Source of the DNA: a virus | Virus genome (UHGV): UHGV-0366749 | DNA: 34,495 nt | Reading direction: 5' to 3' (one strand) | Notes under the pieces: generated by a model | The model's input: only the letters and a program-made list of their open reading frames with translations | What the model was told of the DNA's origin: nothing | The model's database searches: none | Made by a program: the position numbers and the translations under genes | Shown: positions 19,929 through 26,961 of the stretch, piece after piece | Numbering within the stretch: position 1 is the first letter of the stretch | Layout of the letters: every line of letters starts with the position of its first letter

Positions 19929-20322
19929 AGCAGTGCCTTATGTCCGCAATAACCCGGATAAGCTGCATCTGTTTGTGGATAACGGTTCGCTGGTTGCCAC
20001 GGGGGCCAGCTCCATGTCATGGGAGTACCGTTATACCCTCAACGTGGTGATTGAGGATTTCAGCGGCGACCAGAATCTGCTGATGGCCCCGGTTTTGCTG
20101 TGGCTGCGTGATAACCAGCCCGATGCCATCAATAATCCGGCGTTACGGGAAAAGTTATTCACCTTTGAGGTGGATATTCTGCGCAACGATGTCTGTGATA
20201 TCAGCCTCAACCTGCAACTGACGGAACGTGTGCTAGTCAGCACTGACGGAAGTGTGTCGAGCGTTGAAGCAGTAGCGGAACCCGATGAACCTGAAGAAAT
20301 GTGGACGGTGAAACGTGGCTGA
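19891..20322 (+). CDS. R: Tail completion protein (P2 gpR family)
   Basis: Position and size; start set at the in-frame GTG after AGGAG (the listed ORF begins at an upstream ATG, 19870). Confidence 0.7.
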   Translation: MNKPQSLRHALNKAVPYVRNNPDKLHLFVDNGSLVATGASSMSWEYRYTLNVVIEDFSGDQNLLMAPVLLWLRDNQPDAINNPALREKLFTFEVDILRNDVCDISLNLQLTERVLVSTDGSVSSVEAVAEPDEPEEMWTVKRG

Positions 20323-20767
20323 ACTGCAGAAGGTGGACGACTGGCTGAGTGCTTTGCTGGCGAATCTGGAACCAGCCGCAAGAAGCCGAATGATGCGCCA
20401 GCTGGCGCAGGAACTGCGCCGGACACAGCAGCAGAATATCAGGATGCAGCGCAATCCAGATGGCAGCAGTTATGAGCCGCGCAGGGTAACAGCACGCAGC
20501 AAGAAGGGGCGCATCAAACGTCAGATGTTTGCAAAGCTGCGCACCACAAAATACCTGAGAACTGCCGCCAGCGCGGATTCTGCCAGCGTACAGTTTGAAG
20601 GTAAGGTACAGCGTATTGCCCGTGTTCATCACTACGGTCTGCGCGATCGCGTCAGTCCAAAGGGGGGAGTCATTAAGTATCCATCCCGAAAATTGCTGGG
20701 TTTAAATGAACATACTGAAAATGAAGTAAGAGATTTACTTTTAAAGTATTTATTGATGAAAAATTAG
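20315..20767 (+). CDS. S: Tail completion / virion morphogenesis protein (P2 gpS family)
   Basis: Position and size; the 3' end runs into AT-rich DNA. Confidence 0.7.
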   Translation: MAELQKVDDWLSALLANLEPAARSRMMRQLAQELRRTQQQNIRMQRNPDGSSYEPRRVTARSKKGRIKRQMFAKLRTTKYLRTAASADSASVQFEGKVQRIARVHHYGLRDRVSPKGGVIKYPSRKLLGLNEHTENEVRDLLLKYLLMKN

Positions 20768-20772
20768 AATGT

Positions 20773-21303
20773 TTACGCTCTTAATAAACTTAAATAACTT
20801 TTTATGCTTTGGCAAAAAGGGAAAAGGTCTATTTTAATTTTCCAGTTTTTTTTGTTTTGAACCCCAGAAGCAATAATAGAACCGTCCCAATATTTTATTC
20901 CATTTTTGCCGGTCTTTTTTGTTAACTCAAAACTTAATGCGTGAATAATTTTATTGCAGCATTCGCGTATAGAATCTTTAACATGACCATCTATAACAAA
21001 AAGTATATTTTCATGTTCTTCAAATGCTTCTTTCTCAGGTGAGTAATCTGGGTTCCACTCATGTTCACTAGTGTCTTGGAGAATTCGTAGTTTTGTACAA
21101 AGGCTAATAAGATTGTTGCTAATGGTATATTCCAACCATCCGTTGTACGATAACTCCTCCATTTCAAATTCAGTTACTATAGAACCATCATATACTTTCT
21201 GTGTGGAATATATACGCTGTAAATAAAATTCAGATGAACAGCATAATTGCTCAATTATTCTTGCGTGTTCTTCTATAGCGTAATAATCAATTGGATGGCT
21301 CAT
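20773..21303 (-). CDS. Uncharacterised 176-aa protein encoded by an AT-rich insertion between S and V
   Basis: Reverse-strand ORF in a low-GC block between two conserved late genes. Start set at the second ATG (MSHPIDYY…) after an AAAGG-type RBS; the first ATG is at 21342. No recognised motif and no TM segment. Confidence 0.6.
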   Translation of the reverse strand: MSHPIDYYAIEEHARIIEQLCCSSEFYLQRIYSTQKVYDGSIVTEFEMEELSYNGWLEYTISNNLISLCTKLRILQDTSEHEWNPDYSPEKEAFEEHENILFVIDGHVKDSIRECCNKIIHALSFELTKKTGKNGIKYWDGSIIASGVQNKKNWKIKIDLFPFCQSIKSYLSLLRA

Positions 21304-21334
21304 TCTTTTACCTTTCTTTGATTGGAATTGTATT

Positions 21335-21352
21335 TGTGTCATTTACCACACA
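21335..21352. promoter_or_regulatory. Possible late-promoter TGT-N12-ACA element upstream of V
   Basis: TGTGTCATTTACCACACA, 47-64 bp upstream of the V start; weaker match than the O and FI elements. Confidence 0.25.
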
Positions 21353-21398
21353 AGGACGTATTGATGCCATAGATTCAAGGTCCGTGCAACCTAACCCT

Positions 21399-21977
21399 AT
21401 GAACGCACAACTAACCGAAATCATGCGCCTTATCACCAACCTGATCCGCACTGGTGTAGTCACCGAAGTGGACCGGGAAAACTGGCTTTGCCGGGTGAAA
21501 ACGGGCGAGCTTGAAACCAACTGGATCAGCTGGCTGACGCTGCGTGCCGGGAATGCCCGCACATGGTGGCGACCATCGGAAGGTGAGCAGGTGGTGCTGC
21601 TGAGTCTGGGCGGCAATCTGGAAACTGCCTTTGCGCTGCCCGCTGTCTATTCGAATCAGTTCGCACCACCGTCGACGTCGGCAGACGCCTGCGTGACAGA
21701 ACATCCTGACGGCGGCTGGTTTGAATACGAACCCACTACCGGGCGCTGGTATGTCAGGGGCATCAAATCAATGGTCATTGAGGCCGCTGACAACATCACC
21801 ATGAAAACCAGTGAGTTTGTACTGGAGGCTGACCGCACGCGCATTAACAGCGAAGTGGTGATCAATGGTGGCGTTACCCAGGGCGGCGGAGCGATGAGTT
21901 CTAACGGGATCGTGGTTGATGCGCATCAGCATACTGACGTCCTGAAAGGCGGCGACACAACCGGAGGCCCGGTATGA
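21399..21977 (+). CDS. V: Baseplate spike/assembly protein (P2 gpV family)
   Basis: N-terminus MNAQLTEIMRLITNLIRTGVVTEVD resembles P2 gpV; start taken at this ATG rather than the upstream ATG at 21291. Confidence 0.85.
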   Translation: MNAQLTEIMRLITNLIRTGVVTEVDRENWLCRVKTGELETNWISWLTLRAGNARTWWRPSEGEQVVLLSLGGNLETAFALPAVYSNQFAPPSTSADACVTEHPDGGWFEYEPTTGRWYVRGIKSMVIEAADNITMKTSEFVLEADRTRINSEVVINGGVTQGGGAMSSNGIVVDAHQHTDVLKGGDTTGGPV

Positions 21978-22333
21978 CGCTTTATAGCGGGATGAACAAT
22001 ACCAGCGGTAAAGCCATTACTGATATTGATCATCTGCGCCAGTCGGTGCGGGACATTTTGCTGACGCCGCAGGGTAGCCGCATTGCCCGTCGGGAATATG
22101 GTTCCCTGCTGTCGGCACTGATAGACCAGCCACAAAATCCGGCATTACGCCTGCAGGTCATGTCGGCAGTGTATGTGGCGCTGAGTCGCTGGGAGCCACG
22201 GCTGACGCTGGATTCCATCACCATTAACAGCAATTTTGACGGTTCAATGGTGGTGGAGCTGACCGGGCGGCGTAATAACGGTGTGCCTGTTTCCCTTTCC
22301 GTATCAACAGGAGCAGAGAATGGCAGTGATTGA
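21974..22333 (+). CDS. W: Baseplate wedge protein (P2 gpW family)
   Basis: 119 aa, start overlaps the V stop, canonical position. Confidence 0.8.
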   Translation: MTLYSGMNNTSGKAITDIDHLRQSVRDILLTPQGSRIARREYGSLLSALIDQPQNPALRLQVMSAVYVALSRWEPRLTLDSITINSNFDGSMVVELTGRRNNGVPVSLSVSTGAENGSD

Positions 22334-26388: not shown

Positions 26389-26961
26389 ATGATCATGCTT
26401 ATTGGCTATGTACGCGTGTCAACAAATGACCAGAACACCGATTTGCAACGTAATGCACTGAACTGCGCGGGATGTGAGCGGATTTTTGAGGATAAAATCA
26501 GTGGCACTAAGTCCGACAGACCGGGGCTGAAAAAGCTGCTCAGGACACTATCGGCAGGAGACACGCTGGTTGTCTGGAAGCTGGACAGGTTGGGGCGCAG
26601 TATGCGGCATCTTGTTACGCTGATAGAGGAGTTGCGCCAGCGTGGTGTGAATTTCCGAAGCCTGACTGACAGTATTGATACCAGTACCCCAATGGGCCGT
26701 TTCTTTTTTCATGTCATGGGTGCCCTGGCTGAAATGGAACGCGAACTGATAGTTGAACGTACTAGGGCAGGGCTGGCTGCAGCTCGTGCCAAAGGCAGAG
26801 TAGGTGGACGCCGTCCTAAGTTGACCACCGAACAGTGGGCACAGATTGGGCGTTTACTCGAGGCCGGAGAATCAAGACAGCGTATTGCACTGATTTTTGA
26901 TGTGGGTGTTTCCACAATTTATAGAAAATTTCCGGCAAATAAGAGTAATGAATCCCCCTGA
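26389..26961 (+). CDS. Serine DNA invertase (Hin/Gin/Cin/Pin family)
   Basis: N-terminal GYVRVSTNDQ… resolvase/invertase catalytic motif with Ser, and a C-terminal HTH; 190 aa. Confidence 0.9.
   Translation: MIMLIGYVRVSTNDQNTDLQRNALNCAGCERIFEDKISGTKSDRPGLKKLLRTLSAGDTLVVWKLDRLGRSMRHLVTLIEELRQRGVNFRSLTDSIDTSTPMGRFFFHVMGALAEMERELIVERTRAGLAAARAKGRVGGRRPKLTTEQWAQIGRLLEAGESRQRIALIFDVGVSTIYRKFPANKSNESP

Follow-up and report, generated by a model that had tools for sequence, protein, structure and literature searches.

What does a single AT-rich gene, read against the direction of the late operon, do between two tail genes of a P2-like phage? The question is posed by the UHGV virus genome UHGV-0366749, a stretch of 34,495 nt (hereafter the window), in which a reverse-strand gene (20773..21303, minus strand, 176 aa) separates the tail completion gene S from the baseplate spike gene V. 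Over this region the window shows 100% identity to Escherichia phage Cartapus (NC_070909/OV696611; Peduoviridae, Elveevirus), whose gp14, annotated "hypothetical protein", is the gene in question. Cartapus is a P2-like prophage of the adherent-invasive E. coli (AIEC) LF82 (PMC9928086), in which the gene is designated CARTA_14 or LF82_787. We propose that CARTA_14 is a horizontally exchanged cargo gene at the so-called orf30 locus, transcribed in the lysogen from a weak promoter of its own, and that its product is most likely an anti-phage effector, possibly a HEPN-like nuclease; for this reading taken as a whole we consider the chances about even.

The cargo gene belongs to a family that has so far escaped naming. 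The homology and fold searches (Pfam, NCBIfam, PADLOC, PDB, Foldseek) found no named family, in agreement with the original prediction, which had recognised nothing in the sequence, and the sole match among the PHROGs is a family of unknown function built on the same protein (PHROG 18838). A word-indexed search retrieved 12 relatives, while the exhaustive profile search of 1.84 billion cluster representatives retrieved 518 at E<=1e-3 and 144 at E<=1e-10, nearly all of them single-domain proteins of 180–210 aa and none bearing any name but "hypothetical protein". Across 68 diverse members, which share 17–41% identity with the query, no substitution occurs at R73, N117 or H121; D77, R113 and K118 are retained by at least 94% and L145, G147 and W154 by at least 90% of the sequences, and the core motif reads L-[ST]-[LI]-R-E-x-C-N-K-I-I-H-A. 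To our knowledge, the family is unnamed in every library searched and has not been tied to defence in the literature searched; no functional study of the family or of any cargo from this site was found in the literature on orf30, Cartapus, hotspots of P2-like phages and HEPN/DUF4145. The site between S and V and the idea of a moron there are already known.

The main evidence for function comes from the genomic neighborhood of the relatives. The close ones (51–100% identity) are always encoded between V and S, in Pantoea ananatis, in Enterobacter cloacae and in 19/19 IMG/VR contigs. The distant members (25–46% identity) come from Vibrio, Aliivibrio, Pseudoalteromonas, Photobacterium, Stutzerimonas, many alphaproteobacteria, Pectobacterium and a metagenome-assembled genome (MAG) of Erysipelotrichia, and only one of their loci (L016, Vibrio) lies in a P2-like prophage, beside the portal gene Q, i.e. 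at the cos-proximal hotspot. In two loci (L069 and L071) the family gene starts 4–5 bp after a gene for an AAA_21/SMC_N ATPase and in another (L039, 516-3818) ~90 bp after the gene for an 875-aa AAA_13 ATPase, and all three look like uncharacterised two-gene systems composed of an ATPase and an effector; AAA_21 or AAA_23 ATPase genes are found near the family gene also in L009 and L013. Five loci of the Rhodobacterales type, at one shared mfd-adjacent site, exhibit an AbiEi-AbiEii-X operon, in which the family gene overlaps the stop codon of AbiEii. The AbiE system normally comprises two genes, and a third gene is outside its usual definition. Elsewhere the family gene directly follows GmrSD, with SNF2 helicase and SIR2_2 genes nearby (L068), is flanked by a Trypsin_2 gene and a 370-aa gene (L072, L073), adjoins HEPN_Toprim_N genes (L025, L032), lies ~100 bp downstream of a Lit-like Peptidase_U49 gene (L010) or ~600 bp downstream of a TIR gene with one open reading frame (ORF) between them (L019), or stands beside a type I restriction subunit (L009). 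The partners of the distant members thus represent at least 6 unrelated kinds, all of the defence type, a pattern that is as expected of a modular defence effector. By analogy with these neighbors, a role in defence is rather probable. Where the original prediction left defence, anti-defence and superinfection exclusion side by side without discriminating between them, the context is best read as being of the defence type.

Two details of these loci may be added. The genes of L069 (4700-6600) and L071 (3102-6618) are set among DNA methylase and GIY-YIG genes, and the loci with the order AbiEi, AbiEii and family member are L023, L024, L026, L027 and L029 (e.g. 6167-8363 in L026), with the stop/start overlap.

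What kind of effector might it be? The AlphaFold2 model based on 11 sequences (mean predicted local distance difference test score (pLDDT) 90.1, predicted template modelling score (pTM) 0.86) comprises helices 7-34 and 45-78, a short helix 89-95, a strand 101-105 and a helix 112-120, followed by strands 124-131, 137-149 and 152-159 and a final helix 160-175. The HEPN domain has been described as having long helices H1 and H2, an insert between H2 and H3, an R...H motif on H3 and an acidic residue in H2 (PMC3710099), and the order of elements in the model fits this description. R73 and D77 map to helix 2 of the model and R113...H121 to helix 3, the position of the R...H motif being as expected for HEPN. 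The acidic residue of helix 2 (45-78) is D77 (64 Asp and 4 Glu among the 68 members), and the invariant R73 precedes it by four residues, giving an R-x3-D order that is reversed with respect to the E-x3-[KR] of HEPN. Judged on the model, it is possible, if somewhat against the odds, that the protein works like a HEPN RNase, while its membership in the HEPN superfamily is unproven.

The same neighborhoods could be read in another way, namely that the family supplies a non-catalytic partner (a sensor, an adaptor, a specificity subunit or an immunity/antitoxin subunit of a larger enzyme) and that the conserved face of Arg, Asn, Lys and His is a binding surface. Outside the P2-like phages the family member is indeed usually a small gene tightly coupled to an AAA_21/AAA_13 ATPase, GmrSD, the AbiEii nucleotidyltransferase or Trypsin_2, and no homology to nuclease families is detectable. 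On the other hand, at least 21 P2-like loci have it as their sole cargo gene with no partner in the cassette, its partners elsewhere are mutually unrelated, which suits a plug-in effector better than a dedicated regulator, and the invariant Arg/Asn/His together with Asp make a typical catalytic set. We consider a non-catalytic role unlikely.

A low-GC block between S and V contains one reverse-strand ORF (20773..21342, minus strand, 189 aa), as stated in the original prediction, which gave its length as 176–189 aa; of the two lengths, the shorter is likelier. The product is probably 176 aa from the ATG at 21303, because close homologues (51–84% identity, all 176–182 aa) start with MSHPI..., which corresponds to Met14 of the 189-aa ORF, and because the ATG of the latter (21342-21340) falls within a TGT-N12-ACA dyad (21335..21352, plus strand), identified from the sequence and the junction alignment as the Ogr-type late activator site of the V promoter, PV. 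The RefSeq record of Cartapus also annotates the 176-aa start. Judging from the homologue starts, RefSeq and the activator box, the in-frame upstream extension (21304..21342, minus strand) is probably a 5' untranslated region or promoter, and the overlap of the upstream region with the late promoter of V had been correctly foreseen. The center of the dyad lies 55.5 nt upstream of the V ATG (21399), a geometry as in the activator site and V transcription start of the P2 record, and the dyad is kept in 7/7 aligned junctions, the empty one included. A Shine-Dalgarno sequence AAAGG (21311..21315, minus strand) precedes the ATG at 21303 with a 7-nt spacer. Inspection by eye yielded a tentative -10 element of the cargo gene, TACAAT (21327..21332, minus strand), and, at a 15-nt spacer from it, a weak and equally tentative -35-like TTGTGT (21348-21353, minus strand); a [TC]ACAA[TA] sequence resembling TACAAT adjoins the dyad in other cargo carriers too.

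The ORF is not a product of chance: in 0/2000 shuffles of the block was a stop-free run of at least 176 codons obtained (maximum 144, observed 189). The comparison with an 84%-identical homologue (L061) gave a ratio of non-synonymous to synonymous substitution rates (dN/dS, Nei-Gojobori) of 0.11, and the gene is under purifying selection; the GC content of its codon positions 1/2/3 is 0.39/0.32/0.27. The predicted protein, with an isoelectric point of 5.4, a net charge of -7 and no hydrophobic segment, is acidic and soluble, as had been proposed.

Transcription in the lysogen, which the original prediction had suggested looking at, can be followed in the stranded RNA-seq data of PMC9928086 (S1 Table; log2(fpkm+5), where fpkm stands for fragments per kilobase per million, with a floor of 2.32 and two replicates). 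The caption of that table lists lysogeny broth (LB), Dulbecco's modified Eagle medium (DMEM) and macrophage conditions, and samples B1 and B6 were taken here as bacteria only in cell-culture medium. The values for CARTA_14 are 3.51 / 2.71 in the LB stationary phase, 5.06 / 5.16 in B1, 5.89 / 5.97 in B6, 5.11 / 5.28 after 1 h in macrophages and 4.57 / 4.38 after 6 h; across the same conditions S ranges from 2.3 to 3.6, V from 2.3 to 4.3 and the CI repressor from 5.0 to 9.3. The lysogen therefore transcribes CARTA_14 by itself, if only modestly, with roughly 25–55 fpkm versus ~0–5 for the neighboring genes.

Such a profile, with more transcript in cell-culture medium and macrophages than in the LB stationary phase, would also suit a lysogenic-conversion or host-fitness gene or an addiction-type toxin, e.g. 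a stress or intracellular-survival factor of AIEC and other Enterobacteriaceae hosts. The exact 176-aa protein occurs in at least 1000 contigs, labelled "MULTISPECIES: hypothetical protein [Enterobacteriaceae]", and most cargo at the S/V site is without known function, both of which agree with this explanation. We nevertheless regard it as quite improbable: the family has members in marine Vibrio and Pseudoalteromonas, in alphaproteobacteria and in a Firmicute MAG, where their neighbors are restriction, Abi, TIR and ATPase genes and not genes of virulence or metabolism, and the cassette holds no antitoxin-like partner.

If CARTA_14 is an anti-phage effector, it might act as follows. Its product, small and soluble and with a helical bundle as its core, would act in the manner of abortive infection (Abi), and R73/D77 of helix 2 and R113-x3-N117-K118-x2-H121 of helix 3 probably form a metal-independent, divergent HEPN-like nuclease site in it. 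The nuclease would most likely be an RNase whose activity is triggered when a phage invades. Since the gene is on its own in P2-like prophages, the protein would there be sensor and effector in one; elsewhere ABC-type ATPases, the AbiEi/AbiEii pair, GmrSD or a trypsin-like protease would serve as partners of the module. It is tempting to speculate that late transcription of the prophage silences the gene in lytic growth, as the gene is antisense to the late operon and there is no terminator between S and it, so that late transcripts may read through it. In the most far-reaching version, the protein would found a family of RNase effectors of a divergent HEPN-like kind (R-x7-H) that is widespread and has so far gone unrecognised, acting as a lone Abi sensor-effector in P2-like prophages and elsewhere as a plug-in effector to which ABC-ATPases, AbiE, GmrSD and proteases serve as sensors, the S/V site would be a third, single-gene defence hotspot, and self-immunity would be provided by convergent late transcription; this combination of claims is doubtful.

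How does such a protein compare with known systems? PARIS (AriA/AriB), Septu (PtuA/PtuB) and Gabija are two-gene defence systems that combine an ABC-ATPase with a nuclease. The distant members of the family, 4–5 bp downstream of AAA_21/SMC_N ATPases, occupy the position of the nuclease effector in such systems, but the cargo is by sequence not a Toprim, HNH or other known nuclease fold, and the window encodes no ATPase partner. Unlike the HEPN-MNT/AbiE modules, the window is also devoid of AbiE genes. RAZR, a PD system, consists of a zinc finger and a DUF4145-type divergent HEPN RNase (PMC13017515). Its published residues R146 and H154, required for defence, are eight positions apart, and the spacing of R113 and H121 is identical; in contrast to RAZR, the cargo protein lacks a zinc finger or Cys4 ribbon and a match to PF13643 (DUF4145) or to PADLOC models, C116 is the one broadly conserved Cys, a long helix forms the N-terminus and a beta meander precedes the last helix. 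HepS of the Gifsy-1 prophage is a single-HEPN anticodon nuclease of the abortive-infection type (PMC13043305) and provides a precedent for a prophage-encoded single-protein HEPN sensor-effector that has to spare its own prophage, but it comes from a lambdoid prophage, exhibits the canonical HEPN motif, and no sequence or Foldseek relation between it and the cargo protein was detected.

Could the gene instead help Cartapus to overcome host immunity? Its product is small, acidic, soluble, phage-borne and without homologues of known function, and anti-defence genes too occur in variable phage loci. Yet its transcript is made in the lysogen, off the strand opposite to the late operon and not as part of an early lytic operon; its distant homologues are chromosomal, in operons with defence enzymes; very few anti-defence genes are reported for P2-like prophages (PMC13586616); and the catalytic-looking motif is strongly conserved, whereas the surfaces of inhibitors usually evolve fast. 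We consider an anti-defence function very improbable; the evidence favours defence over anti-defence and proves neither.

A number of observations speak against the proposal that CARTA_14 is a HEPN-like defence effector. The link to defence is one of association through gene neighborhoods, and some of the loci are related to each other (the five AbiE loci occupy one mfd-adjacent site and the ATPases of L069 and L071 are near-identical), so that the independent associations are fewer than the loci. The Pfam scans (of the query protein, 11 close members and the 68 diverse members, with HEPN-clan models included), NCBIfam and the PDB sequence profiles yielded no family match. In the Pfam scan of the 68 members at E<=1 no HEPN-clan family was found among the 25 listed of the 28 matched families, each of them matched by one member. 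PADLOC-DB 2.0 (5027 models) yielded no family for the window protein at E<=1, and for the 68 members just scattered single-member matches at E>=0.003. With E<=1e-3 as the threshold, Foldseek found nothing in the PDB (best E 0.21) or BFVD (best E 0.057); listed under this null result are the HEPN toxins 7ae2, 5yep and 8xdj, the integron HEPN 3jrt, YutE (1ylm), TTHA0636 (1wwp) and two aminoglycoside nucleotidyltransferases. The HEPN motif is defined as an Rx4-6H that closes helix 3, the Arg being followed by a polar N, D or H (PMC3710099), while in R113-E-x-C-N-K-I-I-H121 the spacing is 7 and the residue after R113 is Glu in 50 of the 68 members. The three-strand beta meander between H3 and H4 is atypical of HEPN domains. 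As for expression, the scan for sigma-70 consensus promoters called none on the minus strand, TACAAT included, and in the LB stationary phase CARTA_14 is at background, 1.3x the prophage median. The authors of PMC9928086 do not list it as a moron, since it falls below their five-fold LB cut-off.

The original prediction took P2 to have no gene between S and V, which turned out to be mistaken: the P2 reference record annotates Orf30, nonessential and on the reverse strand, at exactly this junction. The orf30 locus is one of three horizontally acquired regions in P2-like phages (Nilsson & Haggard-Ljungquist 2007, as cited in PMC3091744), and phage R18C carries yet another ORF at the S/V site (PMC6823313). 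A census of the junction was carried out by searching complete E. coli genomes with the two flanks joined (R plus the 5' part of S on one side, V, W plus the 5' part of J on the other) and taking 60 evenly spaced records of 1062. Among the 48 junctions resolved, 33 are empty (span 2159 or 2162 bp) and 15 occupied, in at least 9 size classes, with a single reverse-strand cargo gene in 8/8 occupied junctions that were opened. The junction is empty also in the close relatives 500465-1, KP12 and Fels-2, and one reverse-strand gene occupies the same site in P2 (Orf30), in SEN8 (FRG protein), in RE-2010 (gp27) and in eight E. coli cargo types. As 33/48 junctions are empty, the cargo gene must be dispensable for the virion. 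The notion that it is an accessory gene for tail or virion morphogenesis within the structural module, suggested by its position between S and V, is effectively refuted by these empty junctions, including those of 500465-1, KP12 and Fels-2, as well as by the unrelated genes at the site in other phages, its opposite strand and deviant GC content, and its transcription while the late genes are silent.

The resemblance to the orf30 locus of P2 comprises the site, the reverse orientation, the one-gene architecture, the low GC content, the dispensability and the PV activator box on the right. The cargo proteins themselves differ: P2 Orf30 looks like a membrane protein and is unrelated in sequence, while that of Cartapus is soluble. 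The P2 locus also has an annotated terminator between S and orf30, whereas in Cartapus the two convergent genes, S and the cargo gene, have their stop codons 5 bp apart and neither the terminator scan nor folding (z = 0.68) revealed a terminator or stable hairpin between them; no Rfam RNA was found within 20000-22000. Homology of the cargo protein to P2 Orf30, the FRG protein or RE-2010 gp27 was considered and rejected by blastp/HMM (hidden Markov model) comparison; for P2 Orf30 (NP_046770) blastp gave E ~0.9–1.3 over 27 residues and the family HMM no match.

What exactly is exchanged at this site? The low-GC block (~20660-21385) has 32.3% GC as compared with ~57% in its flanks, and in the GC profile values of 0.25–0.35 across ~20680-21390 contrast with 0.55–0.62 on either side. 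In the alignment to the empty-site relative 500465-1, identity extends until ~20657, within S (20315..20767, plus strand; PHROG 26, E 1e-49, and S protein alignment), and resumes only ~15 nt ahead of the start codon of V (21399..21977, plus strand; PHROG 9992, 6142 and 11, and the Cartapus annotation). The last ~35 codons of S (20660-20767) therefore belong to the block; they are low in GC and divergent from close relatives, though still S-like in sequence. The S protein alignment shows the C-terminus departing from the relatives after ...HHYGLRDRVS, and the resulting C-terminus (GGvIKYPSRkLLG...) resembles that of an Enterobacter prophage bearing a 60%-identical cargo gene. The essential tail gene S is therefore a mosaic that travels in part with the cassette (20660..21385), and what is exchanged consists of the cargo gene together with the divergent 3' end of S on one side and, on the other, the cassette's own version of the V late-promoter region. 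The view of the gene as a moron at S/V thus holds in so far as it is an autonomous reverse-strand gene, but not in so far as a simple insertion was implied, for the swap involved a whole cassette, which also takes in the V promoter and the 3' end of S. A transposition-type insertion was considered and rejected, as no direct or inverted repeats were found flanking the block, and cassette exchange by homologous recombination among P2-like phages fits better. We also note that the C-terminus of S co-varies with the type of cargo. The whole block is present in only 22/5426 complete E. coli genomes, whereas P2-like prophages, going by matches to the flanking genes, occur in 1056/5426, about a fifth.

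Ten alternative cargo proteins from the site were scanned against family models. DUF6602 matches the PD-(D/E)xK/NucC-like PADLOC model (6.6e-32) and the FRG-domain protein matches the candidate system PDC-S15 (3e-31); of the others, one is a DUF6216 protein and one is weakly DUF3112-like, and 6/10, P2 Orf30 among them, have no family match. The old/tin and Z/fun hotspots of P2-like prophages have already yielded many defence systems. The hotspot studies examined deal with these two sites, one adding a tail/CI site, and none of them singles out or mines S/V; in PMC13586616, 16% of the P2 defence systems are placed "downstream of GpL", the tail region not being resolved. The S/V (orf30) site has been known as variable since 2007, and the present analysis characterizes it as a clean one-gene swap site, some of whose cargo matches defence models. 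The Cartapus cargo belongs to a family of ~500 clusters that is nameless in the libraries searched, and genes of this family are found time and again coupled to those for defence ATPases, AbiE and restriction. If confirmed, our proposal would provide a new effector family and a new place to seek single-gene systems, together with a testable idea of how a prophage silences its own defence gene in lytic growth. LF82, a studied Crohn's-disease isolate for which transcriptomes and CRISPR interference (CRISPRi) tools are available, carries the gene.

Several minor observations concern other cargo and neighboring genes. The RE-2010-type cargo (L004 1164-2015 / L042 894-1745), for which no Pfam or PADLOC match was found, exhibits by eye a canonical-looking HEPN motif, RNALFH. 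A HEPN-like RSAIVH was seen by eye in the 420-aa second cargo gene of an IMG/VR P2-like contig (L067 4313-5575), and RNNSAH, likewise HEPN-like by eye, in a 504-aa neighbor gene (L065 6618-8132). The junction of that IMG/VR contig (L067 3698-5575) holds two cargos, a family member and the convergent 420-aa gene, so the S/V site is not strictly a one-gene site. E. coli laboratory strains of the B lineage (B, C41(DE3), AS19) carry a P2-like element with a DUF6216 family protein at S/V, and in L048 (834-1640) the DUF6216 gene overlaps the end of S by ~59 bp.

Within the window, an ORF (26389-26961, plus strand) is homologous (E 1.8e-38) to the gene neighboring a family member in a Dokdonia MAG contig (L017). 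A resolvase-domain match appeared somewhere in the neighbor set, and the ORF may be a DNA invertase near the tail-fibre genes. Among the prophage genes, LF82_789, called a moron in PMC9928086, was considered as the cargo gene and rejected, being CARTA_47 of the cos-proximal hotspot, while the cargo gene is LF82_787 (CARTA_14). According to the S1 Table of PMC9928086, LF82_788 and LF82_789 (cos-proximal, hypothetical) and a DinI-family cluster reach log2 values of ~9–11 in macrophages, and the putative exonuclease LF82_783 is high under all conditions; the Cartapus genes concerned (CARTA_1, CARTA_47, CARTA_44-46 and CARTA_32) are stronger morons than CARTA_14.

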